Shown: one piece after another, positions 13,143 to 41,636 of the stretch
Numbering within the stretch: the first letter of the stretch is position 1
Layout of the letters: each line of letters begins with the position of its first letter
Assembly: GCA_043813605.1 (NCBI GenBank)
Contig: JBDRKX010000130.1
Coordinates: 1 to 53,584, forward strand
Direction of reading: 5' to 3'
Length of the DNA stretch: 53,584 nucleotides
DNA from: Elusimicrobiota bacterium
GTDB lineage: Bacteria; CG03; SLGR01; JBDRKX01
The notes under the pieces: model-generated
Told to the model about the DNA's origin: nothing
Database searches by the model: none
What the model saw: only the letters and a program-made list of their open reading frames with translations
Program-made: the position numbers and the translations under genes

Positions 13143-13936
13143 TGTACACAATTAAAACAGAAGGGATCGTTATCAGAAGCTATGATTACGGTGAAGGCCA
13201 CCGTATTGTCGTGATTTTTAGTGAAGATAAAGGGAAACTCCGCGCAGTGGCCAGGGGCTCAAGGAAGACCAAATCAAAATTCGGCGCGTCACTTGAACCG
13301 CTTTCCGAAAACCAGTTTATGCTTCATCGCAAACCGAATGCAGAACTATATACTGTAACAGGCTGCAACGTGCTTAATCCTCATGCGCGCATAAGGGGCA
13401 ATATGTCCAGCTTTGCATACGCGTCTCTTGTGTCTGAAGGTGTCGACCTCTTGTGTGTTGATGAAGATCCGGATCAAGTGATCTACAGGTTTTTCAGTGA
13501 AGTGCTGGATGATATCGAGAGTTGCGAACCGGCCTCATCAGCATGGCTGTTCTTTTTCAGGTTGCTGAAGTGCGCCGGATACAGATTGGATCTTTTTAAA
13601 TGCTGTCAGTGCGGGAATAAAGAGCTTGACGAAATGGTGTTCTCTTCTCCTTCCGGAGGGATACTTTGTGCCGATTGCAGATCTGATGCGAAAGACAGGA
13701 TATCAGTATCAGAAGAAACACTTAAATCTGTAAGGATGCTTTCACCGCATTACCCTCTTGCGGCTGCGGCCGAGAAGCAGATTAGCCTTATTGTGGAAAA
13801 ATTTATAAAATACCAGTTTGAAAAGGAGCTGAGATCACTGGGATTTCTAGAGCTTTTTAGGACAACCGGGATAGCTCGGAAAGTAAAAGAAAGAGGTAAT
13901 ACCCCGCCTGAACTTATAGCTCTTGGACAGGAGTAG
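13142..13936 (+). CDS. recO: DNA repair protein RecO
   Basis: [22 protein letters not shown], Zn finger CCQCG...CADC, located before glyQ. Confidence 0.92.
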
Positions 13937-13937
13937 T

Positions 13938-14807
13938 ATGTTTTTTCAAGACCTGATAGCCAGATTAAATTCTTTTTGGGGAGAGCACGGCTGTATTATA
14001 ACACAGCCTTACGATATAGAAAAAGGCGCAGGGACTTTCAATCCTGCTACTTTTCTTTATTGTCTTAAGCGGCGGCCTGTTTCTGTCGCATATGTTGAGC
14101 CGTCACGGCGTCCTGCGGACGGGAGATACGGAGATAATCCTAACCGGCTGCAGCATTATTATCAATACCAGGTCATCATTAAACCGGCCCCCGATGATGT
14201 ACAGAACCTTTACCGGGCCAGTTTGAGAAGTCTGAGTATTGATCTTAAGAAACATGATCTGCGGCTTGTTAAAGATGACTGGAAATCTCCCACCCTCGGG
14301 GCGTGGGGTCTCGGATGGGAGGTGTGGCTCGACGGGATGGAGATCACGCAGTTCACTTATTTCCAGCAGATAGGCGGTATTGACCTGGACGAGATCCCGG
14401 TTGAACTCACGTACGGACTTGAAAGAATAGCCATGTTCCTGCAGGGTGTCGATAATGTGTACGATATTAAATGGAACCAGGATTTTACATACGGTGATAT
14501 ACATCTTGAAGACGAGAAACAGTTCTCGGCATACAACTTCGAAGAGGTTGATTCGGATTTTCAGAAGATGCTTTTTAAAAAATACGAAGAAAGATGTTAT
14601 GCCCTGCTCGAAAAAAAACTGGTACGGCCGGCGTATGATTTTGTTATGAAAGCGTCCCATAGTTTTAACCTGCTGGATGCCAGGGGGGCGATCAGTGTTA
14701 CCGAAAGGAACCGGTATATAGAAAGGGTCAGGAAAATGGCCGGAAGTGTTGCCGTGGAGTTTATAGGGCAGGAAGCAGGCATGTCCGACGAAGGGGGAAA
14801 ACAATGA
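13938..14807 (+). CDS. glyQ: Glycine--tRNA ligase alpha subunit
   Basis: [51 protein letters not shown] at 13938 with AGGAG upstream. Confidence 0.97.
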
Positions 14808-16897
14808 AGACCGCGCCGTTTTTGATAGAGGTCGGCTGCGAGGACCTTCCGCCCGAGATGATATGCACAATAGAAGAACAGGCCGCCGATAACTTATCAA
14901 AGATTCTCCGGAACAGAAGAATCAGTTGTAAAGGATTGAAAGCACTTGTGTCACACAGGAGGATAGCAGTAAAAATAGATGAAACGGCATCGCATCAGGA
15001 AACTGTTATAGAAAAAGTAAAAGGCCCGCCTGTCGCTGTCGCTTTCAAAGATGGTAAACCGACTCCTGCAGGGCTCGGTTTTGCAAAGAAACTTGGTGCA
15101 AATTTTTCGGACCTTCAGATAGAAGAGACTCCCAGGGGAAAATACTATTATTGTCAAAAGAATTCCCCCGGCAAGCCGTTAAAGGAATTGATTGAAGATA
15201 TAACAATTGAATTTCTTTCAAGTTTCAGTTTTTCCATTACAATGAGGTGGCCAGGGGGGGGTCTCTGTTTTCCGCGTCCGATAAGATGGATCCTGGTAAA
15301 ATACGGGAAGAGCAGTTTTGATTTCAGTCTGGGAGCGCTGAAAAGTTCGAAAACGTCCAGGGGGCATCGTGTTTTTTCCAATAAATGCCTGGCCATTGAA
15401 GATATCAAAGACTATGAGAAGGTTTTGAAACAGAATTATGTTCTTGTAGATGCTTCCGAACGAAAGAAATATCTGAAAAAAGCGATAGACAGGCCGCTCA
15501 GCCATTCGGCGGGAAGTGCGATAAAGGACGAATTCCTGCTTGAGGAAGTAAGCAGTTCGCTGGAGTTCCCTACGGGTATAAAGGGGGAATTCCCGGCAAA
15601 ATACCTGGATATGCCGAGAGAAGTAATAGAGGCCTGCCTTATGTATCACCAGAAATACTTTCCTGTAGAGAGTGATGATGGCGACCTGATGAATTGTTTC
15701 GTCGGGGTAAGAGATGGCATATCGGAACATATTGATCCGATAAGGAGGGGTTATGAGAGGGTTTTGATAGCCAGGCTTGAAGATGCGGAATTTTTCCTTA
15801 AACAGGACAGGCAGCATCCGCTCGAATATTATTCCAAACAGCTTGCAGGTATAGAATTTACGCGCGGACTGGGCACACTGGCGGATAAGACCATGAGGTG
15901 CAAAGCTCTTGCTTCCTTCGTAGCGAAGATACTCAAGAAAGATAATAACTATATCAGTACTGTCCGGCGCATAGCGGATCTGGGAAAAGCAGATCTGGTT
16001 ACGCATATGGTGGGCGAGTTCCCGGAACTGGAGGGTAAAATAGGCAGGATATATGCCGCTATGGACGGTGAGAGTAAAAAGGTCAGCGAAGGAATATATC
16101 AGCATTATATGCCGAGGACATTTGAAGATAAGGTGCCCGGATCAGGCGAGGCTGCGATCGTCGGGGTAGCCGACAGGGTAGATACGTTGGTCGGCAATTA
16201 CGGCGCGGGAGTAGAAGCAACCGGGTCGCAGGACCCCTTTGGGATGAGACGGGCATGCAGGGGGCTCATAAGGATCATGGTGGAGAAGAAGTGGGATCTT
16301 GATCTGAAAAATATTGTATTTCAATGCCGCAGGGAATACGGTTCAAAGACAAAGATAGATTTTACCGATGAGACCATGGTAAAACTGGAGGAATTTCTGG
16401 GACTGCAGATAAAAAATTATCTTGAAGAGAGTTTTCCGCATGATATCGCCAGGTGTGTCATGGCGTCGGGCAGGCTTAATCCCTATACGTTGTCAGCAAG
16501 AGCCTCCGCTGTAGAGAAAATAAAAAAAAGCAAGGGTTTCGATTCTCTGATAACGGCGTTTCGGCGGATCAATAACATAATAAAACAGGCGGAAGAGAAT
16601 GGCGTCGACATTCCTCCGACATATGAGGAGGCTATGCTGGAGGAAGGATCAGAGCAGGATCTGAATTCTATTTTTTCCCGTGTCAAAAAAGATGCATATA
16701 GAAAAATCTCTGCTCATGAGTATGCTGCAGTACTAAAACTCCTGGCTTCAATGCGCGCGGCTGTTGATATGTTCTTTAATGATGTGCTGGTTATGGATCC
16801 CGACAAGGGAATTATGAAAAACAGGTTAGCCATGCTCAGAGCCATAGTCGAACTGTTTGCTCCAGTGGGGGATATATCAAAACTGGAGACAAAATAG
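14804..16897 (+). CDS. glyS: Glycine--tRNA ligase beta subunit
   Basis: [62 protein letters not shown] tail. Confidence 0.95.
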
Positions 16898-29184: not shown

Positions 29185-30675
29185 ATGGACAGTATAAGAG
29201 CTTATTCATCATTATACAGGCTGATCGGTTCAGATAAACAGGGCAATGATTTCTTTAAGGAAGTTGCCCGTACACTTGTCGAGAGTATTCCGAAAACAGA
29301 ATGGAATATAATCCCGCTTGTAGAATCAACAGCACAGCTTGAGTTCCCGCCAGAGATGAAGGTTCTTGAGAATATATGTGAAAAATCCCGCGAAGTCTTT
29401 GAAAACGGAAAAAGAGTTCTCTTGAAGAAGGATTTGCCGTCGGGGTATAAATGGGGTTTTATCTCTCCCCTGGTCAATATGCGGCAGAAAAAAGGTGTTG
29501 TGGTCTGCCTCGGCAAAGGGAAGAAAGAGGCGATTGCAGATACGGTCAGTGATGATATAGCTTTTGTAATACAGCAGTATCAGCTTAGACAGAAGCTGAT
29601 ACGGGATACGATGATGATGAACACTGTTGTAATGGCGTCCCAGAGTACGGCATCATCAACGGAGGTGTTCCCTATTATTAAAATACTGCGTTCTTACCTC
29701 AAGAAATACCTGGCGGCGGAAGCAGTCCGTATAATGCTGTGGGATAGGACAGGGTCGTTTTATTACGGTGATGACGGTTCAAGGATTGACATAGAGGTTC
29801 CCGAAGGGGAAAGTATAACACAGGAAGTGAGATCAACGGGCCGTCCTCTGATGCTTCAGAATGCGTATGAATATGAGACTTTTAATGCTCAAATAGACGC
29901 TATTACAGATAATGACAAGGTGCTGAATATGATCGCAGCGCCTATAGCGGTCGCGAGCGGGATTACGGGTGTTCTTATTGCAGTGAACAACGATAAGAAC
30001 AGAGTATTTGTCGGCAGCGAACTGGTCTGGGTTAAAAGCGTCTGCGGGGAAATAGGGGCGACAATCGAAAAGATCAAATTGTACGGAGATATTAATAAAC
30101 TTTTCCTTTCATCGGTGGAAGCGCTGGCAGCTGCAATTGAAGGAAAGGATCCGTATACACACGGGCACTCGCGCAGGGTTACCATGTTTTCAATGGTAAT
30201 AGGAAAAAAGCTGGGGCTCGACAAAAAAGACATAGAAGATATAAGGCTGTCTGCATTGCTTCATGATGTCGGGAAAATAGCGGTAACGGAATCTATACTT
30301 ATGAAAGAGTCCAAGCTGACAGATGATGAGTGGTATGTTATGAAGCAGCATCCTGCAAAAGGGGTTGCTATGCTGGAACCTGTAAAAGAATTTAAACGGC
30401 TTCTTCCGGGGATACGGCATCATCATGAGCGATATGACGGCACGGGATACCCGGATGGAAAGGCGGGAGAGGATATACCCCTCATAGCAAGAATAATAGC
30501 TGTAGCAGATGCTTTTGATGCTATGACATCCAAGCGTATTTACAGGGATGCAATGGCAGAAGAAAAAGCGCTAAAGGAGATAGAGCGTTGCCGCGGGAAA
30601 CAGTTTGATCCGGAGATAGCGGATATTTTTATTGATGTTTACAGAGAAAAATTCTATGCCGGGGACACAGCATGA
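29185..30675 (+). CDS. GAF-domain HD-GYP cyclic dinucleotide phosphodiesterase
   Basis: GAF-like segment, then KDPYTHGHS, LHDVGK, HHERYDGTGYP, ADAFDAMTS.R.YR, QFDP. Confidence 0.92.
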   Translation: MDSIRAYSSLYRLIGSDKQGNDFFKEVARTLVESIPKTEWNIIPLVESTAQLEFPPEMKVLENICEKSREVFENGKRVLLKKDLPSGYKWGFISPLVNMRQKKGVVVCLGKGKKEAIADTVSDDIAFVIQQYQLRQKLIRDTMMMNTVVMASQSTASSTEVFPIIKILRSYLKKYLAAEAVRIMLWDRTGSFYYGDDGSRIDIEVPEGESITQEVRSTGRPLMLQNAYEYETFNAQIDAITDNDKVLNMIAAPIAVASGITGVLIAVNNDKNRVFVGSELVWVKSVCGEIGATIEKIKLYGDINKLFLSSVEALAAAIEGKDPYTHGHSRRVTMFSMVIGKKLGLDKKDIEDIRLSALLHDVGKIAVTESILMKESKLTDDEWYVMKQHPAKGVAMLEPVKEFKRLLPGIRHHHERYDGTGYPDGKAGEDIPLIARIIAVADAFDAMTSKRIYRDAMAEEKALKEIERCRGKQFDPEIADIFIDVYREKFYAGDTA

Positions 30676-31022
30676 AGATACTTATTTGCGATGACGAATA
30701 CGCTACAAGACTGATAACAAAATCTTTCCTTGATATGCATTCCTATGATACGGTAGAAGCAGCGAATGGATTTGAGGCATTTGAAGTGATAAAAAGAGAG
30801 GCACCGGATCTCCTGATAATAGATTATTCTATGCCGGGCAAAACAGGACTTGAGGTAATAAGGGAATTGGACGGAAGATTGCCGTCAATAGTACTGACCT
30901 CAGAAGGATTCACGGAATTAACCGAAAAAGAGCTTAAAGAACAAGCGTCGGCTTATATAATAAAACCTGTGACCGAAGAAAAACTCATAGAAACTGTTAA
31001 AAGAGTGATGGGGGGGGATTGA
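30672..31022 (+). CDS. Single-domain response regulator (receiver 1)
   Basis: ICDDE, DLLIIDYSMP, LTS, IKP. No output domain. Confidence 0.9.
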   Translation: MKILICDDEYATRLITKSFLDMHSYDTVEAANGFEAFEVIKREAPDLLIIDYSMPGKTGLEVIRELDGRLPSIVLTSEGFTELTEKELKEQASAYIIKPVTEEKLIETVKRVMGGD

Positions 31023-31396
31023 TGGATAAAATAAAAATACTGATATGTGATGATGAGTATGCTACGCGGCTGGTAACAAAAGCATACCTGGAGGAATTTA
31101 ACATAGAGGTTCTTGAAGCTGCAAGCGGAGAGGAAGCGGAATCTATTATTGAAAGAGAGATGCCGGATCTCCTGATAATAGATTATTCAATGCCGGATAA
31201 GACAGGACTTGAAGTAATCCGGGAACTTGAGACGGTGCCGCCTGTAATAGTTGTATTGACTGCCGAGGGATTCAGCAGTGATATTGAAGCCGAACTGAAG
31301 AAGAACGCTGCAGGTTATCTTGTTAAGCCTCTGACTCAGGAAGTGCTGATAAAAACGGTAGAAAAAGCCCTGGGAAGAAGTCTCGATGGGAGATGA
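31022..31396 (+). CDS. Single-domain response regulator (receiver 2, paralog of receiver 1)
   Basis: ICDDE, DLLIIDYSMP, LTA, VKP. TGATG overlap with the previous gene. Confidence 0.9.
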   Translation: MDKIKILICDDEYATRLVTKAYLEEFNIEVLEAASGEEAESIIEREMPDLLIIDYSMPDKTGLEVIRELETVPPVIVVLTAEGFSSDIEAELKKNAAGYLVKPLTQEVLIKTVEKALGRSLDGR

Positions 31397-31784
31397 CAGG
31401 TTAAAGATACTTGTAGTAGATGACGAGATGTATGTGCGGCTGATAGTCAAGGCATATCTTTCGCCCTATAAAGTGGAAATAATAGAAGCTGTTGACGGGA
31501 AAGAAGGGCTGGATATTTTGAGAGAAGATTATGCAGAAATTGATCTTGTCATCCTGGATAATACTATGCCGATGATGACAGGGCAGGAAGTGCTCGACGA
31601 GATGAACAATGATGAAAACCTCGGTAAGATCCCTGTTATAGTATATACCGCGGGAGGCATAGGGCGGGATCTGGAGGCGCATTTAAAAGTGTCATCTTCA
31701 GCATTTCTTGAAAAATCAAACCTGGGAGACGACCTTATTCCAACAATAAAGGGGATACTGGGCGACCGTCTAGAAAATAATTGA
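31386..31784 (+). CDS. Single-domain response regulator (receiver 3)
   Basis: VVDDE, DLVILDNTMP, YTA, LEK. Confidence 0.9.
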   Translation: MGDDRLKILVVDDEMYVRLIVKAYLSPYKVEIIEAVDGKEGLDILREDYAEIDLVILDNTMPMMTGQEVLDEMNNDENLGKIPVIVYTAGGIGRDLEAHLKVSSSAFLEKSNLGDDLIPTIKGILGDRLENN

Positions 31785-33898
31785 AGATAAAACTTCTTTA
31801 TAAATTCATTATCGTGCTGGTACTGATATCTGTAGTCCCTCTTTCGATAGTCGGGTTTAAGATGGTCAATATTAATAAGGTTACACTGGAAGAAGCAATT
31901 CTTTATAAACACACAAATACCGCAGAGTTTCTTGCAGGCGGTATAGACAGTTTTGTAATGGCCTTAAGGGAAAAACTGCTTTTTCTTATTTCTGCGCAGT
32001 CCATTCAGACACTTGATAATAGAACAAAGGAGACTTTGATAAAATCACTTTTATCATCATCTGACTATTTTATTTCAGTTTCGGTGCTGAATGCCGAGGG
32101 CCAGGAGATATTAAAAGCATATAATCAGGATTATGTCGAAGAAGCGAAGATAAGGGACCTGGCGGGAAGCGAACTTTTTAAGAAGGCGGCGGGCGGTGCC
32201 GCCGTAGGCGATGTCTATGAAAATTTTTCCGAACCGAGAATAGATGTTATATATCCGGTACATAATGAATACGTCTATGTATCATGTACTCTGGCCAAGC
32301 TCTGGAAAGATATAAGGGATACCAGTATAGGTAAGAAAGCAGATGTATTTCTTGTTGACAGTTCGGGTAAAATACTGTGTCATACTGACCCTGCTATGGA
32401 AGGTGAAATTTCTGCAATACCGCCGGTCAGGGCAGTACTGGAAAGGGCAAGTCTGGGCAGCATGGAATATGGAGGTGAAGAAAATAGGATGGTAGGTGCT
32501 TATGCACCCGTAGAAAGCATGGGGTGGGGCATGGTTACACAGCAGCCTTATGGATTCGCTTATGAATCTGCAATAGAAATGAGAAATAATGCGAATAGAT
32601 GGATAATAATTGCCATTGTATTGGCTGTAATAGTCTCTTATATTCTGGCCATGGGTCTGACCGGGCCCATATTCAAACTTATAAAAGGAGCAAGTAAAGT
32701 CGCTGATGGAGATTTTGATAGTACTGTGATTGTAAATACCGGCGATGAATTAGAGATGCTTTCAGATACTTTTAATAGTATGGTTATTTCACTTAAGAAC
32801 TACGATGAGATGCAGATCGACAGGATAATTGCAGAAAAGACCAAAACAGAGTCTATCGTTTTTTCGATCGAAGACGGCATAGTATTAACAGATTTCAACG
32901 GAAAAATAATGCTGGTGAACGATCGGGCAAGGGAACTCCTTGATATCGAAAAAAATCCGGCTGAAGATGATGATATATTCGATTATATAAAGGGAAAGGA
33001 ACTTGTGGAGGTGTTTAAGGATGTCAGGGAAGCGGAAATAGAGCTCTTCAGCGGAGAAAAGAGGAAGGTAATAAAAGCCATAACAAAAGATGTTATGACG
33101 ACAAAAGGAAAAAATATCGGCAAGATGCGTATAATCAGGGATATTACACTGGAGAAAGAGATTGAAGAAGTCAGAGATACATTTATTAATTCGATAACTC
33201 ACGATCTGCGTAATCCTATATCAAGTATGATAGGTACTCTCGATATAATAACAAACGGCATGCTGGGGCCGGTTAACGAGAAACAGCTTGAGTTCCTTAA
33301 TAATGTGAAGCGGTCTTCGAAGCGGCTTGAAAGACTGGCAAATGATATACTGGATGCGGCAAAAGTGGATGCCGGCAGACTGGAGCTGGAACTGGAAGAG
33401 ACGGATTTTAGGGAAGTAGTGGAAGAGGTGGTTATGTTTATGCAGTGGGAAGCCACTGAGAGAAACCAGGATCTGAAAAGCGAGTTCAGCGGGGAATTCG
33501 GACGAATATTTATTGACAGGGATATGCTGTACAGGATATTGATCAACCTCGTTGGGAATGCGATGAAATTTGTTCCGCGCGGTGGATCTGTGACAATAAA
33601 AGCAGTTGGGAAAGAAGAGTTTATAGAAGTTGCCATAATAGATACGGGCAGTGGAATTCCTCCTGAATATATTGATAGGATATTTGATAAATATCAGCAG
33701 GTAGAGGGTGAAATGAAAAGGCGCGGCACGGGACTCGGCCTTTTTATATGCAAGGAAGTGGTCCGTGCGCATTTGGGGGAAATCTGGGCTGAATCCGAGG
33801 AGGATAAAGGAACAAGTATTATATTCAGGATCCCGTGGGAATTGAAGAAAACAAAAGATGGCGGGATATTTGTGGGCGAAAAACCGGAAAACACATGA
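31781..33898 (+). CDS. Sensor histidine kinase 1 (TM-Cache-like-TM-HAMP-PAS-HisKA-HATPase)
   Basis: FLVDSSG.I..H (Cache-like), HAMP GP..KL...DELE.L..FN, THDLRNP, NLVGNAMKF, DTGSGI, GTGLGL. Confidence 0.92.
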   Translation: MKIKLLYKFIIVLVLISVVPLSIVGFKMVNINKVTLEEAILYKHTNTAEFLAGGIDSFVMALREKLLFLISAQSIQTLDNRTKETLIKSLLSSSDYFISVSVLNAEGQEILKAYNQDYVEEAKIRDLAGSELFKKAAGGAAVGDVYENFSEPRIDVIYPVHNEYVYVSCTLAKLWKDIRDTSIGKKADVFLVDSSGKILCHTDPAMEGEISAIPPVRAVLERASLGSMEYGGEENRMVGAYAPVESMGWGMVTQQPYGFAYESAIEMRNNANRWIIIAIVLAVIVSYILAMGLTGPIFKLIKGASKVADGDFDSTVIVNTGDELEMLSDTFNSMVISLKNYDEMQIDRIIAEKTKTESIVFSIEDGIVLTDFNGKIMLVNDRARELLDIEKNPAEDDDIFDYIKGKELVEVFKDVREAEIELFSGEKRKVIKAITKDVMTTKGKNIGKMRIIRDITLEKEIEEVRDTFINSITHDLRNPISSMIGTLDIITNGMLGPVNEKQLEFLNNVKRSSKRLERLANDILDAAKVDAGRLELELEETDFREVVEEVVMFMQWEATERNQDLKSEFSGEFGRIFIDRDMLYRILINLVGNAMKFVPRGGSVTIKAVGKEEFIEVAIIDTGSGIPPEYIDRIFDKYQQVEGEMKRRGTGLGLFICKEVVRAHLGEIWAESEEDKGTSIIFRIPWELKKTKDGGIFVGEKPENT

Positions 33899-35181
33899 TG
33901 AAAAAGCAATATTCAGGATATAAAAGTTGTTTCATTATACTGTTAATAATAGTCTTTTTTGCCCCGGTGCGGCTATCAGCAGGATTGGTAGAAGTGGAAG
34001 TCAGGGAAGGAGATACACTTCACTCTTTTGCCAGGAAATACCTGAAAGATGCTGCCGACTGGCCTAAAATATACGAATTGAATAATTCCACGATAAAGAA
34101 TCCTAACATAATATACCCCGGCCAGATAGTCTTAGTACCCATAGAAATGCTAAAGGAAAAAGTAGGCGATCTCACGGGTCTTGAAAAAAGCGTAAAGATC
34201 AAAAAAATCAAAAAAGATTGGCGGCCTGGTGAATTCGGAGAAAGGCTTTTCCCTGAAGAAGGTATTCAGACCGGAGAAAAAGCTTTTGCAAGAGTAGATT
34301 TTCTTGCCGGGGGCAGCCTTAAAGTGTACGAGCATTCACTTGTTTTTCTTAAACATGCGGCTAAAAAGAACGCTGTGGCTTCTCTTCTGGGCGGTGGGAT
34401 AAACGCAGAAAAAATAAAAGTAGTAACACCTGCGGGAGAGGTAAATCCGCAGACAGAAGAGTCTGAATATGATGTGGCTGTCGAAGAGGATAATAAAACA
34501 AAGGTAAGTGTGCACAGCGGTGAAGTTAAGGTAAAACCCCAAATTACCGGTGTTGCGCAATGGTCAAAAGAAGTAGAAGAAAAAGCGGTAATTATCAAAA
34601 AGGGATATAGGACAATAGTAAAACCGGAAAAGGAACCTGAAGCACCAAAACTTCTTCCTGAATCCGGAGAAAAGGCACTGCAAAATATCGGTATGGCTGC
34701 TGCAGGTAAAGAAATCAAGTTCCTGCTACAGGTCTCTAAGTCTGATAATTTTAAGATAATACTGAAACACGAAGAAGCCTACGATCTGAGCCCGGAGTAT
34801 ATAGAAAAGGAACTTTCACCTGGCAGATACTATTGGAGAGCAGCTGTAATGGATAATGATGGTTTTAGTGGCGCTTTTTCAAAACCGAGGAGTTTTGTAA
34901 TAAAAACGTCGGATCCCTTTGTAGAACTATATGAGTTTGAAGAGTCTGGGCATAATAGGTCGCTTTTAAAAGTTAACGGTTACGCAATGAACGTCTGGGA
35001 CATCTCTATTAATAACAATCCTGCAACAATGACAGAGTCAGGAGAGCTGGAAGCACTTATATTGCTGCCCAACAGGATATCGATGGTTGCAGGGTGCAAG
35101 GAAGGTGTCATAATCAAGAAATACCATAAAAAATATGATGAAGTATGGGTGCCGGCAGGAGATGTTTTCTTAAGAAGATAA
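33895..35181 (+). CDS. Exported LysM-FecR domain protein 1
   Basis: Signal-peptide-like N-terminus, LysM VREGDTLH...IKNPNIIYPGQ, FecR-like IQTG..A...F..GG.L....S...TPAG...T.VSV..GEV.V, beta-rich tail with YYWRA. Confidence 0.8.
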   Translation: MMKKQYSGYKSCFIILLIIVFFAPVRLSAGLVEVEVREGDTLHSFARKYLKDAADWPKIYELNNSTIKNPNIIYPGQIVLVPIEMLKEKVGDLTGLEKSVKIKKIKKDWRPGEFGERLFPEEGIQTGEKAFARVDFLAGGSLKVYEHSLVFLKHAAKKNAVASLLGGGINAEKIKVVTPAGEVNPQTEESEYDVAVEEDNKTKVSVHSGEVKVKPQITGVAQWSKEVEEKAVIIKKGYRTIVKPEKEPEAPKLLPESGEKALQNIGMAAAGKEIKFLLQVSKSDNFKIILKHEEAYDLSPEYIEKELSPGRYYWRAAVMDNDGFSGAFSKPRSFVIKTSDPFVELYEFEESGHNRSLLKVNGYAMNVWDISINNNPATMTESGELEALILLPNRISMVAGCKEGVIIKKYHKKYDEVWVPAGDVFLRR

Positions 35182-35219
35182 AGCAGATACGATGTTATTA
35201 ATACGCCAGGAGGTCTTTA

Positions 35220-35678
35220 ATGGATAATAAGAGTGGTACTGATAAAGAGCGCAGGAGCAGATTAGTCCGGATAGTGCCCGGGGAGATAAAAAAACTGCAG
35301 TTCAAGTTTTTTAGGCTGATAGCGCTAAGTCTGGTGATTTCTATTCTGCTGGGCGCATTGGGTTTTTATGGGGTAAAACATCTGGTATTAAGTACAGCTG
35401 AACTGGGGCCTTATGCAGAATCCAGGCTCAAGGAGGTCGATATCTGGATGAACTGGCTTTTCTTGGCTGTTATATGTATTTCAGTAATGATCGGAGGATT
35501 GCTCAGTTTACGGCTTTCAAGCAGAATAGCCGGTCCGATATACCGGATTAAAATAATTCTCAGGGAAGTACTTAATACGGGAAAACCCGTGGAGATCAGA
35601 ATACGTCCAAAGGATGAATTCCAGGAACTCGTAGAACTGCTGAACAAGATCATAATGAAAATGGATAAAAATGAATAG
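35220..35678 (+). CDS. Small membrane protein with two TM helices and a stand-alone HAMP domain
   Basis: SSRIAGPIYRI...IRIRPKDEFQELVELLN. Strong RBS AGGAGG. Confidence 0.75.
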   Translation: MDNKSGTDKERRSRLVRIVPGEIKKLQFKFFRLIALSLVISILLGALGFYGVKHLVLSTAELGPYAESRLKEVDIWMNWLFLAVICISVMIGGLLSLRLSSRIAGPIYRIKIILREVLNTGKPVEIRIRPKDEFQELVELLNKIIMKMDKNE

Positions 35679-36651
35679 ACTTGTATTTATTATCGTGTTA
35701 TTGTTTTTTGCGGCTCTAGCCGCTAACCTGCAGGCAGAAGATCTAGTGGAGGTGAAATACGGAGAGTATTCATTTCACATAAATCCATTCAGGATGGAAC
35801 AGATTGAAAAATCAGAAGAAGAAATTCATTCTGTTTATGTTAATTCGGGAATATACGATTTTTCGGACAGAAAGTATGCTTTTGGGAAACTGAATGAACT
35901 TAGGAAAAATGATATTCGTACGCGTTTGAAGGTTATGGTCCTTCCGATAAACGAGCTTGTAGTTTATATATCATTTCCTGACGGCGGTAATATGCTGGTT
36001 TTGATGGGTGAGAAAATTATAGCACGGGATATCGTCTCTACTATTGAAAAATTACTTATTAAAAAGGATGAAGCGCATGTGATGAAACTAATGGGCTGGA
36101 AGCCAAGGGTCGACTGGCTTGTAATACCTTCGGCGCGCAATGTCGATCTCACTGCAATAAAAATGCTAGTCGCAGAGTTTAATGTTAAGGAAATAATAAC
36201 TCCCTCCGGGATGGATTGCACATTCTTTTACAATAGGAGACATGCCTGGACAACTATAGAAAAGGGTGCTCAAAAAAAGCTCGTAGCCGATATGGAAATT
36301 GATCTGCTGCAGGCTGAATCACCTGTGAAGATGGTCTCTTACGGTACTCCGGATTTCAATAAACACAGCTTAATGCTTAAACTCTCGTATATTGATTTTA
36401 GTTTTCTTTTTGTACCGGATATAACCGAATCCGAACAAAAGAGCATAGTAGAAAAATACGGAGAAAGACTAAGGAGTACTATTCTTTTTTCGAGCGGAGA
36501 TTATGACAGCATAAATAGCGGATTTATGGAAGCTGTGGATCCGGGATTTGTCGTTCCTGAAGGTTTTAAGTTCAGGTTTTCTACAGGGGGCTATCTCCTG
36601 AAGGTACTGGAAGATATGCCTATAGATTATGATGTGATAGATGCAAGATAA
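35671..36651 (+). CDS. Exported ComEC/Rec2-like metallo-beta-lactamase-fold protein, metal ligands absent
   Basis: Signal peptide. FPDGGNMLV, VDWLVIP, NKHSLMLKLSY..FSFLFVPD and LRSTIL follow the ComEC MBL motif order. Confidence 0.6.
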   Translation: MNRLVFIIVLLFFAALAANLQAEDLVEVKYGEYSFHINPFRMEQIEKSEEEIHSVYVNSGIYDFSDRKYAFGKLNELRKNDIRTRLKVMVLPINELVVYISFPDGGNMLVLMGEKIIARDIVSTIEKLLIKKDEAHVMKLMGWKPRVDWLVIPSARNVDLTAIKMLVAEFNVKEIITPSGMDCTFFYNRRHAWTTIEKGAQKKLVADMEIDLLQAESPVKMVSYGTPDFNKHSLMLKLSYIDFSFLFVPDITESEQKSIVEKYGERLRSTILFSSGDYDSINSGFMEAVDPGFVVPEGFKFRFSTGGYLLKVLEDMPIDYDVIDAR

Positions 36652-36693
36652 TGCGAATAGTATAAGCAGGTCTTGTAAACAGAAGATTAGATC

Positions 36694-38763
36694 ATGAAGC
36701 TACTTTATAAATTTATACTGGTGATGGTTTTCATCGCCGTAATACCCATGTCGTTCGTGGGTATGAAGATGATAAATATAAATAAGTTTGCGCTGGAAGA
36801 GTCTATACGTCATAATCATATAACCACGGCAAAGTTTCTGGCCCGCGGAATAGACGATTTTGTCGCGGCGCTCAGAGAAAAACTGCTGTTCCTTATATCT
36901 TCCCAATCGGTTAATGCGCTGGATTTTAAGGGGAAACAGGCTCTTATCCAGGCACTGCTTTCATCAACTGATTATTTTATAGCTGTATCAATGGTAAATA
37001 ACTCGGGAGAAGAATTTGTAAAGACATATCATCCGGATTATCTGAAAGAAGCCGAGATCAAGGGAATTGCGGATACCGAACTTTTTCAAAAAGCAAGGTC
37101 TGGCCCGGCAGTCAGCGGGATATATAGAAAGAATTCTCAGCCCAGAATGGATATTATATATCCTTTAGGCACGGAATTCGTATATATAACAATAACGCTT
37201 GATAAGATATGGCAGGAGATAAAAAGCGCTGAAATCGGAAAAGAGGCGATAGCTTTTCTTGTTGATAAAAATGGCCTGCTGCTTGCTCATCCGGATCCAT
37301 CGAAAGAAGGCAAAAAACTTAATATCCCCCCCGTAGAAGCCGTATTGACAAGAGCGAGTTTGGGGAGTATGGAGTATGATACAGCCGACGGCCGTATGAT
37401 AGGGGCTTATTCTCCGGTGGAAAGTATGGGTTGGGGAGTAGTTACTCAGCAGCCGTACGAATATGCGTATGAATCGGCTATTGAGATGAAGAAAAATGCT
37501 CTCAAGTGGGTTGTCCTTTCGGTTCTTTTCGCCGTATTGATAGCATATTTGTTTGCCAGGGGACTGTCCGGTCCTATTATGAAACTTGTTAAGGGGGCCC
37601 AGCTTGTCGCTGCGGGTGATTTCAGCAATACGATAGAGGTTAAGACACGCGATGAACTCAATGTGCTCTCAAAGACATTCAATAACATGGTAGCCTCGCT
37701 TAAAAAATATAATGAGATGCAGATAGATAAGATAATAGCTGAGAGGACAAAAACTGAATCAATAATATTCTCTATTGACGACGGAATAGTCCTTACCGAC
37801 TTCGAAGGAAAGATCATGCTGGTTAATAAAAGGGCAGAGGAATTGCTTGATATGGGAAAAGAGCCGGTGGAAGGGGCTTCTATATTCGATTATATAGAAG
37901 GAGAAGAGCTTCAAAGAGTCTTTTCTGAGATCAGCGAATCTGAAATAGATCTTTCTACGGGAGGAGAGAGAAAGATCATAAGGGCTATAACTGAGGATGT
38001 AAGAACGGCCGGCGGAAAAGAAATAGGGAAAATGCGTGTGATAAGGGATATAACGCTTCAAAAAGAGATAGAAGAGATAAAGGAAAGATTCCTGCAATCC
38101 ATAACTCATGATCTTAAGAACCCGCTGGCAGCCATAATAGGCATGTCGGATCTCTTAAAGCGGATGCGTGGAGAAGAGATAAAAGAAAAAGAGGAAAAAT
38201 ATTTTGAAGTTTTGAAACAAGAAGCGGAACGCCTTATGGGTATGATCAATGATATACTCAGTCTTGCCAAACTCGAGGCCGGGAAAATGGAGATCGTAAG
38301 AACAAAATTCGATGTTTCTCAGGTAATAACGGAGATAAAGTACGCGTTTACTGCACAGGCAGAAAATTCAGGTATTAAAATAGAGACGGTACTTCAGGAA
38401 CAACCTATGGTAATAAATGCGGATAAAAACCTCATAAAGCGTGTTGTAATCAACCTGCTCGGGAATTCACTTAAATATACTTCCAGAGGAGGCGCAGTTA
38501 CGATGAAGGTCGAAAAGGAGGTGTCCGGAGTCTCGATATATATCATTGATAACGGAGAAGGTATGCCCCGGGATATGTGTGAAAAGATATTTGACAGATT
38601 CCAGCAGATCAGAGGTCAGTCTAAAGGAGGGACGGGTATCGGGCTCAATGTCTCCAAAGAGATCATTGAGGCACATGGAGGAAAGATATGGGCGGAATCG
38701 GAGCTGGGCAAAGGATCGGTATTTATATTTACACTTCCGGATGAGAGTCTTATTGACAATTAG
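36694..38763 (+). CDS. Sensor histidine kinase 2 (paralog of kinase 1)
   Basis: Same architecture as kinase 1. THDLKNP, NLLGNSLKY, DNGEGM, GTGIGL. Confidence 0.92.
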   Translation: MKLLYKFILVMVFIAVIPMSFVGMKMININKFALEESIRHNHITTAKFLARGIDDFVAALREKLLFLISSQSVNALDFKGKQALIQALLSSTDYFIAVSMVNNSGEEFVKTYHPDYLKEAEIKGIADTELFQKARSGPAVSGIYRKNSQPRMDIIYPLGTEFVYITITLDKIWQEIKSAEIGKEAIAFLVDKNGLLLAHPDPSKEGKKLNIPPVEAVLTRASLGSMEYDTADGRMIGAYSPVESMGWGVVTQQPYEYAYESAIEMKKNALKWVVLSVLFAVLIAYLFARGLSGPIMKLVKGAQLVAAGDFSNTIEVKTRDELNVLSKTFNNMVASLKKYNEMQIDKIIAERTKTESIIFSIDDGIVLTDFEGKIMLVNKRAEELLDMGKEPVEGASIFDYIEGEELQRVFSEISESEIDLSTGGERKIIRAITEDVRTAGGKEIGKMRVIRDITLQKEIEEIKERFLQSITHDLKNPLAAIIGMSDLLKRMRGEEIKEKEEKYFEVLKQEAERLMGMINDILSLAKLEAGKMEIVRTKFDVSQVITEIKYAFTAQAENSGIKIETVLQEQPMVINADKNLIKRVVINLLGNSLKYTSRGGAVTMKVEKEVSGVSIYIIDNGEGMPRDMCEKIFDRFQQIRGQSKGGTGIGLNVSKEIIEAHGGKIWAESELGKGSVFIFTLPDESLIDN

Positions 38764-38783
38764 ATAGCCGTGGAGAATGTATT

Positions 38784-40376
38784 GTGTCAGTTGTTCCTGT
38801 GAAAAAAAATAAAATATTTCATGACCGTCCGCTGGTTATACTCAGATGGCTGATAATAGCTTTCCTTATCGCTTATTCCGTATTCTGTTGCGGAGGCTGT
38901 CCAGGGCGGGTTCCGGCTGTTTTGTTTTTGATGCTCATTATTTCCAACCTGATTCTCGGATTTAAAGGAAGGCAGATAACAGCAAAGAGCCGGCTGCTCA
39001 AAATCATATTTCTTCTGGATATTTCATCTATCTCTATTATTATGTACCTGAGCGGTCAGCAGATAGATCTTTTTCTCCTTTATGCTGTAGTTATTCTGAA
39101 TTCCGCTGTATATTTCAATTTCAATAATATTTTATTCACTCTGATACTCGTATTCGCGGCTTTCTTGACAGTGTATGGTGTCTCAGATAAGTTTTCAATA
39201 ACAGAATTCTCTACATTGATGCGGTTGCCTTTTTTCTTTATGATTGCGGGTTTTGCAGCATATATGTCCGGGGAATCAAAAAGATTTAAAAATGAAAAAG
39301 AGAAGATAGAGATGCTGTATAATGCCCTGACCGGCGCTCTGGACAGCGGTATCATCGGTGTCGATATTAATATGGAGATACTTTTTTCTAACGGATTTGC
39401 CGAAAATCTGCTGGGGATCAACCGCTTGAAGCAGTCCGGGCAGAATCTGGCCGAGCTGAATGAATTTGAAGGACTTGTCAGTATTTTCAGTAAGACCATG
39501 GATACCGGAAAGAATCAAGTCAGAAAAGAAGCAATAGTAAAAAGCCTTGATTCAGGGAAAGAGATGCTTATAGGATGTACAACTTCGCTTATTAGGGATA
39601 AGACGGGAAAGATCTCCGGCGCCATAGCTATTTTCAGGGATATATCAGAAATTACCAGAGAACGGGAGGAAAAAGAACAACTTAAGAAAAGAGCGTTGAT
39701 AGGGGAATCTGCGGCGGGGATAGCGCATGAGATCAAAAATACATTTTCGGTAATATCCGGGATGGCGCAGAATATGGACTCTTATTTCAGTGAAAAACCG
39801 GAAAAAGTCAGAGAATACTGCCGGATAATGAAAGAGGAAGTAGATAAAGCCCTGGGTATAATAAACGATATAAGGGATATTACAAAAGCCAGCAATGTTG
39901 ATTTCAGTAAAATAAAGATAGGGCAATTCATCGGCACTATTGTAGACCATTACCATTTTAATCTGATAGGCAGTTCTGTACTGCTTGATTGCAGAATCGA
40001 TTTAGACGAAGAGTATGTAATTTATGGAGCGGCAGGGATGATAGAGCAGGTTGTAGTCAATCTTGTCAGGAATGCCGAAGAAGCAGTTGATAAGGAAACG
40101 GGAAAAATATCAGTTAAGGTCTTTGAAGAACAGGGCATGGCATGTATCAGTGTCTCCGATAACGGGCACGGTATACCCGAAGAAATTGAGGAAAACATAT
40201 TTAAACCATTTTTTACTACAAAGACAAAAGGCACCGGTCTTGGATTGTCAATATGCAGCCGGATCATTGAACTTCATGGGGGGAAACTCGATGTTTCAAG
40301 CAGTAAGAGCGGGACGCAGTTCACAATAAGGTTGCCTAAATCCCGGGAAGTTAATAGTATATCAGATAGCACATAG
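38784..40376 (+). CDS. Multi-TM PAS sensor histidine kinase 3 (PilS/NtrB-like)
   Basis: About 5 TM helices, PAS, AAGIAHEIKN, NLVRNA, DNGHGI, PFFTTK..GTGLGL. Confidence 0.9.
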   Translation: MSVVPVKKNKIFHDRPLVILRWLIIAFLIAYSVFCCGGCPGRVPAVLFLMLIISNLILGFKGRQITAKSRLLKIIFLLDISSISIIMYLSGQQIDLFLLYAVVILNSAVYFNFNNILFTLILVFAAFLTVYGVSDKFSITEFSTLMRLPFFFMIAGFAAYMSGESKRFKNEKEKIEMLYNALTGALDSGIIGVDINMEILFSNGFAENLLGINRLKQSGQNLAELNEFEGLVSIFSKTMDTGKNQVRKEAIVKSLDSGKEMLIGCTTSLIRDKTGKISGAIAIFRDISEITREREEKEQLKKRALIGESAAGIAHEIKNTFSVISGMAQNMDSYFSEKPEKVREYCRIMKEEVDKALGIINDIRDITKASNVDFSKIKIGQFIGTIVDHYHFNLIGSSVLLDCRIDLDEEYVIYGAAGMIEQVVVNLVRNAEEAVDKETGKISVKVFEEQGMACISVSDNGHGIPEEIEENIFKPFFTTKTKGTGLGLSICSRIIELHGGKLDVSSSKSGTQFTIRLPKSREVNSISDST

Positions 40377-40415
40377 AAAATGACATGTGAAAATGATATA
40401 GGAGAGATAGGCAAT

Positions 40416-41636
40416 ATGAATAGGCAGATTCCATTGCTATTGACGATTATTTTGTTCTTGCCCGTTTTGCTGAATGCAAAACTTGTCGAAGTTGAAGTGA
40501 GAACCGGCGATACGCTTCATGGTTTCGCTTCAAAATACCTGAAAAACCCGTCTGAATGGCCGAAGATATATGATATAAATAAAAAAGAAATAAAAAATCC
40601 CAATAAGATATACCCGGGCCAGATAATAAATATCCCGATAGAGATGCTTAAGGATAAGGTGGGAGACCTTACGGGCATATTAAACAGCGTGAAGGTGAAG
40701 AAAAGAGAAAAACGCGACTGGAATAAAGGTAAAAAAAACGAAACGCTGTTTCCTGAAGACGGCATATTAACAGGGGATAAATCGTTTGCAAGGATAGATT
40801 TTCTTGTCGGAAGCAACCTGAAAATAAATGAAAATTCACTTATTTACCTTAAGCCGACTAAAGCTAAAACAGCGGTGGCCTCTCTTCTTGAGGGGGGGCT
40901 CAATGTCAATAAAGCCAAGATAATAACACCTGCTGCAGAGATACTGCCCAGGGGAAATTCCCAGTACGATGTAGATATAGACAAAGAGAAGAACACAAAA
41001 GTGAGTGTAAGGCTTGGAGAAGTGGATGTGAAAGCTCAGGGTGAAACCGTGACAGTTATTCAGGGATTCAGGACAATGGTGGAGTTCAGTAAAGCGCCTC
41101 AATCGCCGGTAGCTCTGCCTCTTGCAGGAGAAGAGGCGCTTGAATTTAAAGAAGATATCCTTTCCAATAAAGAACTTATTTTTTACCTCGAAGTATCCGG
41201 GGACGAGGAGTTTAATATATTGGCTAAAAAAGAAGAAACTTCTGATCTGGGTCTCGATCATATAAAAGAAGGGCTCAAACCCGGGCAGTATTACTGGAGA
41301 GCGGCGATTATAGACAAACATGGATTCAGGGGCGATTTTTCCCGCGCCCGCGCTTTTGTGGTGCAGATAAGGACCAGTGCAGTCGTAGAACTGACGGGAT
41401 TCGAGATTGTAAACAAAGATGAAGGGATAATGAGAATAGCAGGTTATGCGACGAATGCCAGCAGAGTCGTTGTAAACGGATATCCCACAGTGATCGATCA
41501 GAGTGGTAACTTTAAGACCACTATCGTACTTTCGAAAGGACAGCACACGATAACTGTGACGGCTATAAGCAGTGAGGGTATAATAATAAGAAAATATCAC
41601 CGTTCCGAAGACGGTATGTGGCTTCCTGCCGAATAG
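40416..41636 (+). CDS. Exported LysM-FecR domain protein 2 (paralog)
   Basis: Signal peptide, LysM VRTGDTLH...IKNPNKIYPGQ, FecR-like core, YYWRA, Ig-like tail. ATG at 40416 with GGAGAG upstream. Confidence 0.8.
   Translation: MNRQIPLLLTIILFLPVLLNAKLVEVEVRTGDTLHGFASKYLKNPSEWPKIYDINKKEIKNPNKIYPGQIINIPIEMLKDKVGDLTGILNSVKVKKREKRDWNKGKKNETLFPEDGILTGDKSFARIDFLVGSNLKINENSLIYLKPTKAKTAVASLLEGGLNVNKAKIITPAAEILPRGNSQYDVDIDKEKNTKVSVRLGEVDVKAQGETVTVIQGFRTMVEFSKAPQSPVALPLAGEEALEFKEDILSNKELIFYLEVSGDEEFNILAKKEETSDLGLDHIKEGLKPGQYYWRAAIIDKHGFRGDFSRARAFVVQIRTSAVVELTGFEIVNKDEGIMRIAGYATNASRVVVNGYPTVIDQSGNFKTTIVLSKGQHTITVTAISSEGIIIRKYHRSEDGMWLPAE

Follow-up and report, generated by a model that had tools for sequence, protein, structure and literature searches.

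A conserved sensor kinase and LysM-FecR gene pair at the core of a putative envelope-sensing locus of Elusimicrobiota

The present analysis concerns a 53,584-nucleotide stretch of DNA from an Elusimicrobiota bacterium (contig JBDRKX010000130.1 of assembly GCA_043813605.1), referred to as a whole as the window, in which the + strand carries a locus of eleven co-oriented open reading frames (ORFs) at positions 29185-41636. Our comparison across genomes revealed that the core of this locus is a conserved pair of neighbouring genes, coding for a membrane histidine kinase (HK) and an exported LysM-FecR protein (LF), and that two old paralogous modules of this pair, A and B, can be distinguished. 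On balance, the locus seems to have arisen by lineage-specific expansion from an old envelope sensor of two parts, in which LF and the kinase would signal to receiver proteins and from these likely to an enzyme of the HD-GYP type. The first part of such a sensor would be the membrane histidine kinase, with dCache as its periplasmic domain, and the second the exported LF with its LysM domain, a domain of the predicted FecR/PupR fold and two Ig-like domains.

Organization of the locus

The cluster encodes the following proteins, all on the + strand; receivers are designated REC, lengths are given in amino acids (aa) and domain matches are those of Pfam unless stated otherwise.

29185..30675, + strand: GAF-HD-GYP protein of 496 aa, predicted cyclic di-GMP (c-di-GMP) phosphodiesterase (HD_5 144.8 bits, HD 77 bits, GAF 28.3 bits)
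30672..31022, + strand: REC1, stand-alone receiver of the 'REC-up' type (Response_reg 77.6 bits)
31019..31396, + strand: REC2, stand-alone receiver, duplicate of REC1 (Response_reg 81.7 bits)
31386..31784, + strand: REC3, stand-alone receiver of the 'REC-dn' type (Response_reg 59.8 bits), with a 4-bp overlap with the start of HK1
31781..33898, + strand: HK1, dCache_1-HAMP-PAS-HisKA-HATPase kinase of type A, lineage-specific duplicate
33895..35181, + strand: LF1, exported LysM-FecR-Ig protein, partner of HK1 (LysM 34 bits; FecR 14.6 bits, below the cut-off)
35220..35678, + strand: protein of 152 aa with two transmembrane (TM) segments (34-52, 79-97) and a HAMP-like tail, add-on gene
35671..36651, + strand: exported protein of 326 aa with a putative metallo-beta-lactamase (MBL) fold and no metal ligands, add-on gene (MBL clusters of the Atlas)
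36694..38763, + strand: HK2, dCache_1-HAMP-PAS-HisKA-HATPase kinase of type A, orthologous to the kinases of loci L018, L019, L020 and L044
38784..40376, + strand: HK3, multi-TM PAS-HisKA-HATPase kinase with a sensor part unrelated to that of HK1 and HK2
40380..41636 (likely start 40416), + strand: LF2, exported LysM-FecR-Ig-Ig protein, partner of HK2 (LysM 32 bits, FecR 24.4 bits, Glucodextran_B 24 bits)

The sequence-only reading of this stretch had spoken of ten genes; the actual count is eleven, and the list given in that reading itself names eleven. Its description of co-oriented and tightly packed genes agrees with the spacing between consecutive genes of -4, -4, -11, -4, -4, +38, -8, +42, +20 and +3 bp (LF1 counted from its ATG at 33895), i.e., overlaps of 4-11 bp or spacings of 3-42 bp, and the domain make-up was likewise as described, by Pfam and, for the MBL-like protein, by the Atlas. 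The paralogy that it proposed was borne out by identities of 53% between HK1 and HK2 over 685 aa, 47% between LF1 and LF2 over 412 aa and 60% between REC1 and REC2; REC3 is 37% identical to REC1.

Conservation and co-duplication of the kinase-LF pair

The distribution of LF was assessed in a phylum-level comparison group of 26 species genomes and in 15 further genomes sampled outside this group. The LF profile matched 25 of the 26 group genomes at E <= 1e-10, the one miss being an 80%-complete genome. Outside the group, matches at E <= 1e-5 were obtained in 6/15 genomes, five of them to short LysM-only proteins and one to a LysM-FecR-Ig protein (genome G038), the gene of which lies at a contig end, with a sensor absent from the 6.8 kb upstream. 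Homologues with an organism label were all assigned to Elusimicrobiota/Elusimicrobia, with a single exception labelled '[bacterium]'.

The genome of the window (G000) codes for exactly three LF paralogues (LF1, LF2 and one on contig C115) and for three full-length kinases of the family, each of them immediately upstream of an LF, with HK3 intervening between HK2 and LF2. To place these genes, 11 loci around LF genes of the window kind (type A) and 12 loci around LF genes of the contig C115 kind (type B) were compared. A family kinase lies directly upstream of 11/13 type-A LF genes, the two of the window included, and of 10/12 type-B LF genes, and this pairing in 21 of the 25 LF genes is therefore more than chance. 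Trees of 19 kinases and of the 19 neighbouring LFs both split into A and B at a Shimodaira-Hasegawa-like approximate likelihood-ratio test (SH-aLRT) value of 99, with identical sub-clades; the single discordant row is the upstream LF of locus L025, a type-B LF standing in tandem before a type-A kinase-LF pair. The matching split in both trees indicates an early duplication in the group that took both genes of the pair together. HK1-LF1 is a second duplication of the pair, which occurred in the lineage of the window, and HK1-LF1, the two-TM/HAMP gene and the MBL-like gene were seen in this genome only and in none of the related loci examined. Hence, gene-neighbourhood conservation, named as a check by the sequence-only reading, holds for the kinase-LF pair, which is both conserved and co-duplicated, and does not extend to the eleven genes as one conserved unit.

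Two genomes of the comparison group show further arrangements of these genes. In L025 (G020:C15:1-5606) a type-B LF and a REC-REC gene are followed by the type-A kinase-LF pair, a tandem layout consistent with module A having arisen as a tandem duplicate of module B. In genome G013 the type-A LF (L021, contig C38) is split by a stop codon beside a fragment of a Mutator-family transposase, and the block of aldolase, HD-GYP, REC, REC and kinase genes is intact on another contig (L044, contig C108), as if the partner gene had decayed following a rearrangement.

Domains and predicted fold of the LF proteins

Both LF proteins of the window carry a single N-terminal hydrophobic segment (residues 14-32 in LF1 and 13-31 in LF2) and directly after it the LysM domain. 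The FecR match of LF2 is barely above the Pfam cut-off of 24 bits and that of LF1 below it, and among database proteins none was found that is more than 50% identical to LF1. The structure of LF2 was predicted from a 22-sequence alignment with a mean predicted local distance difference test (pLDDT) score of 85.9. The top matches of this model in the Protein Data Bank (PDB) by Foldseek were the periplasmic signalling domain of PupR (6ovk, probability 1.00) and then BDI_1681. When compared by VIA-align, residues 124-280 of the model superposed on the PupR domain with Z 15.8 and a root mean square deviation of 2.2 Å over 124 residues, and the model matched the putative anti-sigma factor BDI_1681 (4m0n) with Z 14.3, while unrelated chains reached Z 8.2 at most. 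Residues 34-94 of the model match a LysM domain, and residues 247-328 and 331-412 are Ig/FN3-like. As suggested by the predicted structure, LF carries a true FecR/PupR-type fold, and the earlier assignment of LF to FecR-fold proteins is upheld by this match together with the signal-peptide-like N-terminus and the LysM domain.

A FecR-type fold could also be read as a sign that LF is the FecR-type anti-sigma factor of classical FecI-FecR-FecA iron-uptake signalling, and both the Pfam match of LF2 to FecR and the structural match to the periplasmic domains of PupR and BDI_1681 are in line with such a role. We consider it highly improbable, however: the proteins have one N-terminal hydrophobic segment followed by LysM, and no match to, nor space for, a cytoplasmic anti-sigma domain was found in LF1 or LF2, so that the architecture of LF contradicts an anti-sigma role. 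Furthermore, none of the 11 cluster proteins and of the seven flanking ORFs matched an extracytoplasmic function (ECF) sigma factor, a TonB-dependent receptor or a DNA-binding domain in Pfam, as the sequence-only reading had noted for the cluster. ECF sigma factors and TonB receptors were absent from the related loci scanned as well, where the only sigma factor was a full sigma-70 (regions 1.2-4) in L023. The lack of a transcription factor, which that reading had put forward as a feature of the system, is true of the cluster and is not special to it, as receiver-only proteins are the rule in this genome.

Outside the lineage, the Atlas neighbours of LF2 were Pseudomonadota families with LysM and FecR (and in part Ig_J) domains and Acidobacteriota FecR-Ig families. 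The Pseudomonadota LysM+FecR clusters reached a feature score of 0.93 and a TM-score by query of 0.59-0.63. Because the nearest Atlas clusters lie in Pseudomonadota and Acidobacteriota, the LysM/FecR/Ig-type architecture appears to be widespread. A complete LF module was also found at residues 656-1085 of protein P0134 (1095 aa, 'YfhO family protein', from an Elusimicrobia metagenome-assembled genome (MAG)), preceded by a match to the C-terminal 50 residues of YfhO; this could be a real YfhO-LF fusion or a run-on gene call.

Sensor kinases

The dCache_1 domain was recognized in HK1 and HK2 with 65.9 and 77.8 bits, and in HK1 the periplasmic domain spans ~250 aa between two TM segments. HisKA and HATPase_c domains scored above their cut-offs in HK1, HK2 and HK3, and the histidine of the H-box (H472 of HK2) is unchanged across 18 kinases. 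HK2 is 58-59% identical to the kinases of L018 and L019. The three strong dCache_1 matches in genome G000 are the three family kinases paired with LF, and the two CHASE2 proteins of this genome are encoded on other contigs (C93, C114), apart from any FecR match. HK3 differs in its N-terminal part, which has ~5-6 hydrophobic segments, and an HK3 orthologue in the same position was found in L019 only, with 41.5% identity.

Receivers and the HD-GYP protein

REC1, REC2 and REC3 (116, 125 and 132 aa) consist of the receiver domain only. In the receiver tree REC1 and REC2 share a clade with the upstream receivers of L018 and L019, and the REC1/REC2 duplicate pair parallels the duplication of HK1/HK2 and LF1/LF2. 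The clade of REC3 holds the receivers immediately upstream of the kinase in L018, L019 and L020 (SH-aLRT 99), and tblastn showed the same arrangement for L044; a receiver of this type directly precedes the kinase in five loci, i.e., the window, L018, L019, L020 and L044. The REC1/2-type receiver was found in the four loci bearing HD-GYP and is absent from L020, which is without HD-GYP, so that the two genes are both present or both absent in 5/5 loci of this small sample. The residues DD-D-T-K are retained in 10/10 type-A receivers examined.

The GAF-HD-GYP protein carries HD at residue 360, HHE at residue 413 and GYP at residue 421, and with its HD and GYP motifs intact it is predicted to be a c-di-GMP phosphodiesterase. 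Its N-terminal part is a GAF domain and not a receiver, the receivers being separate genes. In L018, L019 and L044 an orthologue immediately precedes the receivers, and the type-A order there is aldolase, HD-GYP, REC, REC, kinase, (HK3), LF and YqeC, and the order in L020 is aldolase, REC, kinase and LF. The HD-GYP-REC-REC-kinase order is thus kept in the window, L018, L019 and L044, which represent four families, and in type-A loci HD-GYP and the upstream receiver are confined to the taxonomic order of the window.

In type-B loci a REC-REC protein without an output domain follows LF in 12/12 cases. Its C-terminal receiver retains the acidic pocket, the phospho-acceptor Asp and the Lys in loci L028-L038, whereas at the phospho-acceptor position of its N-terminal receiver Asn stands in 5/11 proteins examined, and this receiver often lacks the second acidic residue, which, judged by these residues, looks like a pseudo-receiver in the making. 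A type-B GAF-HD-GYP gene is located a few kb upstream, beside V-ATPase genes, with NadE and a methylase gene (and, in genomes of the order, two ABC ATPase genes) intervening.

Two side observations concern c-di-GMP-related genes. Small PilZ genes occur near type-A loci, beside LF in G001 (L017, contig C6) and upstream of MutL-MnmG-kinase-LF in family f8 (L022, L024), which is a weak hint at a c-di-GMP connection. On contig C47 of genome G000 a giant frame of 32,335 codons (C47:18114-115118, minus strand), closed at both ends, contains an HD-GYP-type tblastn hit (C47:24831-25352); as the frame is uninterrupted, the giant gene carries an HD-GYP-like module.

A cyclase version in Leptospirales-related genomes

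A search of genome contigs with LF2 returned one distant locus, L041 of a Leptospirales MAG, which was found through a shared Ig-domain motif, and a search of metagenome contigs returned one 1.5-kb fragment. L041 encodes a membrane receptor that combines HAMP with a class III cyclase domain, and its gene is overlapped by that of a FecR-Ig protein. The LF profile aligned with the FecR region of this protein at an hhalign probability of 95.7%, and the kinase profile with the TM1-sensor-TM2-HAMP part of the cyclase receptor at 98.6% over 320 columns; this alignment had no unpaired dCache-HAMP control and hence indicates a common type of module, not a special subfamily. The Leptospirales FecR-Ig family was found in 28/31 related genomes, and FecR-Ig stands directly downstream of the cyclase receptor in 20/20 fetched loci from 19 genomes. 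No LysM domain was detected in the Leptospirales partner by Pfam. The sensor and its FecR partner thus stay together though the output changes, which argues for cooperation on the periplasmic side. The loci L041 and L048-L067 of Leptospirales-related genomes show a conserved run of a sensor-HAMP class III cyclase gene, a FecR-Ig gene (~700 aa) and often a gene for an Ig_J-like protein.

Proposed mechanism and alternative explanations

The mechanism proposed here builds on the pairing of the genes and their joint duplication, on the folds and on catalytic and phospho-acceptor motifs that are all intact. LF would be exported, and its LysM domain would hold it on the cell wall. The FecR-Ig part of LF would then contact the periplasmic sensor of the kinase, and in this way the state of the wall or envelope may set the activity of the kinase. 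The kinase would phosphorylate the receiver-only proteins encoded just upstream, and these presumably act on proteins and not on DNA. Their likeliest target is the adjoining GAF-HD-GYP protein, through which the level of c-di-GMP might be controlled; its HD and GYP motifs are intact, and c-di-GMP cyclase domains occur in the genome, with 13 GGDEF matches.

A number of observations weigh against this mechanism, some of them touching the pair itself and others its link to the receivers and the HD-GYP protein. Concerning the pair, 4/25 LF genes are not adjacent to a kinase; in these four cases (G001, G013 and two genomes of genus g7) both genes are kept but unlinked. Compared with PDB sequences, the kinase sensor gave weak matches to dCache chemoreceptors, the best with E 0.0024, and no close solved relative. 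The distance matrix of LF correlates with that of the kinase to the same extent in the periplasmic part (r 0.83) and in the cytoplasmic part (r 0.82), with no periplasm-specific signal; the partial correlation between LF and kinase is 0.85 in clade A and 0.14 in clade B, and shared ancestry can account for all of the correlation between their distances.

These results bear on the explanation that LF is only a co-expressed envelope protein, structural or adhesive, the level of which is possibly controlled by the kinase, and that the kinase alone senses a small ligand via its dCache pocket. dCache domains normally bind small ligands directly, and the mirror-tree comparison without periplasm-specific co-evolution fits this explanation, as does the similarity of the Ig-like domains of LF to SiiE and ice-adhesin repeats (Z 7-8), along with the many giant Ig-repeat proteins that are also drawn by the LF profile search. 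However, the cluster encodes no transcription factor that would make LF a regulated target, and kinase and LF were duplicated together twice. The persistence of the sensor and FecR pairing with a cyclase output in Leptospirales points to the periplasmic side, and domains of the FecR fold are known to bind proteins in the periplasm, as in 6ovk, whose title names a complex. We therefore regard a role of LF as a mere envelope protein as rather unlikely.

Concerning the link to the receivers and HD-GYP, five type-A pairs of genus g13 (family f8), located between MutL-MnmG and the gene of a LysM-M23 peptidase, lack any receiver or HD-GYP in their vicinity. In the HD-GYP tree (427 columns kept; the row G000_C47 is the whole 32,335-codon frame) the type-A and type-B enzymes are not sisters, which is incongruent with the kinase tree and lends no support to co-duplication with the kinase-LF pair. 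Hence, the HD-GYP link rests on the tight packing and on the co-presence in five loci, not on co-duplication. For type B, the link between HD-GYP and kinase may be plain synteny, because housekeeping genes intervene. In addition, genome G000 (2.84 Mb) has 105 matches to Response_reg, of which 102 exceed the cut-off and many lie in frames of 120-150 aa, so that receivers beside any kinase are unsurprising; the same genome yielded 13 matches to GGDEF and 8 tblastn hits of the HD-GYP type.

By a further explanation, the eleven genes would be a chance juxtaposition of independent modules (HD-GYP with a receiver; receiver-kinase-LF; TM-HAMP/MBL; HK3), the receivers would be phosphate sinks or serve targets from other loci, and no pathway would lead from the kinase to HD-GYP. 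The abundance of receivers, GGDEF and HD-GYP proteins in the genome and the incongruent HD-GYP tree are compatible with it, and so are L020, a receiver-kinase-LF locus without HD-GYP, the loci of genus g13 with the kinase-LF pair alone, and the TM-HAMP/MBL pair, which has a paralogous copy in another cluster (contig C114). Nevertheless, we find chance juxtaposition improbable in view of the 4-11 bp overlaps among the first six genes, the HD-GYP, REC, REC, kinase order in four loci of four families and the co-presence or co-absence of upstream receiver and HD-GYP, small as this sample is. A two-part sensor of LF and kinase that acts through the receivers, and likely on HD-GYP, thus remains the reading that we favour.

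Add-on and flanking genes

HK1-LF1, HK3, the two-TM/HAMP protein and the MBL-like protein are later additions and do not belong to the core. The 152-aa protein gave no Pfam match. Its label 'TM-HAMP' in the sequence-only reading was right as to the two hydrophobic segments, and a HAMP tail is plausible, as an NCBIfam kinase model matches weakly with its TM2-HAMP end (24.8 bits, with a cut-off of 194). The 326-aa protein had no Pfam match either, and a word-based search with it returned only the protein itself. In the Atlas it was placed with Lactamase_B/MBL clusters at a feature score of 0.95, with a TM-score by query of 0.58-0.64 to ComEC-type MBL domains, values that refer to the Atlas's own model with a pLDDT of 0.58. 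Among its residues, which include five His in total, neither HxH nor HxHxD[HD] was found; 'ligand-less MBL' is a fair description because the HxH motif is absent.

The sole relatives found for the two-TM/HAMP and MBL-like genes are an adjacent paralogous pair on contig C114, with identities of 45% and 37%. In this pair (at ~11970-14830; L040:5970-8834, minus strand) a receiver domain precedes the two-TM/HAMP part in one fused protein of 316 aa, and the MBL-like protein, 393 aa long, has a TPR tail. It is surrounded by other receiver genes and by Wza-like, Wzc-like (GNVR) and Wzy_C polysaccharide export genes.

The cluster of the window is flanked by TyrRS, HIT, DUF498 and class II aldolase genes upstream and by YqeC and molybdenum hydroxylase genes downstream. 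Promoter-like sites (40 vs 35.3 expected) and terminator-like sites (15 vs 11.4 expected) were at chance level, and the window gave no hits in scans for Rfam families and tRNAs. Among sequencing runs, one DNA run was returned, with a 0.07 share of words, and no RNA run.

Comparison with known systems

In the 'BiofilmReg' operon of Burkholderia, the genes for a COG4254 LysM-FecR protein (PA4035-type in Pseudomonas) and a CHASE2-PAS histidine kinase stand together with those for a CreB-type regulator and a DUF4136 protein, and biofilm was no longer formed when the regulator gene carried an insertion (PMC5192318). As in the window, an exported LysM-FecR protein is thus encoded beside a membrane sensor kinase with cytoplasmic PAS, in a tight operon with a response regulator. 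The two systems differ in the sensor (dCache_1 in the window, CHASE2 in BiofilmReg), in the position of the LysM-FecR gene (after the kinase in the window, before it in BiofilmReg) and in the regulators, which are receiver-only in the window, whereas that of BiofilmReg is a DNA binder of the CreB/OmpR type; the window lacks the DUF4136 lipoprotein and has in addition the GAF-HD-GYP enzyme and two extra Ig-like domains in LF. The term 'undescribed', used in the sequence-only reading, was therefore too strong, as COG4254 LysM-FecR proteins beside CHASE2 sensor kinases had already been published (PMC5192318).

In Campylobacterota, CHASE2 adenylate cyclases have been described, in the excerpted parts of the source, in clusters with a FecR-domain protein, a phosphodiesterase and a TPR protein (PMC9239204). 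An exported FecR-domain protein accompanied by a membrane receptor and a second-messenger phosphodiesterase is common to these clusters and to the window; in those parts, their sensor is CHASE2, their output a cyclase and cAMP, and LysM is not reported, in contrast to the route of the window from histidine kinase to receivers and HD-GYP (c-di-GMP). For Sinorhizobium meliloti, the corresponding portion of a paper which also treats the CHASE2 cyclases of this species gives the FecR-domain protein SMc02177 as a Clr target (PMC5498481).

The anti-sigma regulators of the PupR/FecR type (6ovk, 4m0n) share with LF, as far as the model of LF2 indicates, the fold of the periplasmic domain (Z 15.8 and 14.3) and probably a periplasmic protein-binding role; unlike them, LF lacks an anti-sigma domain, is not anchored in the membrane other than by its signal peptide and has no ECF sigma factor or TonB-dependent transducer as a partner. 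With the cyclase version of Leptospirales the locus has in common a homologous TM1-sensor-TM2-HAMP part and an exported FecR-Ig protein encoded directly after it, whereas there the output is a nucleotide cyclase, the partner is without LysM by Pfam and many loci contain a further Ig_J-like gene.

In the RpfC/RpfG-type pathway a sensor kinase feeds a REC-HD-GYP phosphodiesterase. The presence of a histidine kinase, receivers and an intact HD-GYP in one cluster is similar and suggests phosphorylation-controlled c-di-GMP hydrolysis in the window as well; in contrast to RpfG, the HD-GYP of the window is fused to GAF and not to a receiver, and its link to the separately encoded receivers is putative.

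Literature searches, which did not include supplementary files, returned no paper on the pairing of a dCache-type sensor with a FecR-fold protein, the cyclase version of Leptospirales included, and none on the present locus. Thus, the pairing of LysM-FecR with a CHASE2 kinase was already known, and the dCache sensor, the receiver-only outputs, the attached HD-GYP and the extra Ig domains set the present locus apart from it. The window further carries a private duplication and two add-on genes.

Significance

The FecR-fold neighbour has been kept in two distant lineages with different outputs, and together with the co-duplication and the protein-binding fold this suggests that the periplasmic sensor-FecR pair is the functional unit. 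The locus is an example of a putative envelope sensor encoded with receivers and a predicted c-di-GMP phosphodiesterase as its only partners. Annotation as iron regulators is routinely, and wrongly, given to FecR-domain proteins outside iron signalling; two Leptospira papers, in the portions drawn on here, treat FecR-domain genes in this way.

A broader idea, which we put forward as tentative and consider less probable than the two-part sensor itself, is that exported FecR-fold proteins might be obligate co-receptors for a whole class of dCache/CHASE2 receptors across phyla, with an exchangeable output (histidine kinase, cyclase, possibly Ser/Thr kinase). The LysM version found here would then report the state of the wall without a transcription factor, via receiver-only proteins and c-di-GMP hydrolysis, and would have been repeatedly duplicated to widen sensing. 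The hypothesis of a sensor-FecR pair is testable with purified periplasmic domains, and the value of the finding lies less in the single cluster than in the general pairing of a sensor with a FecR-fold protein.

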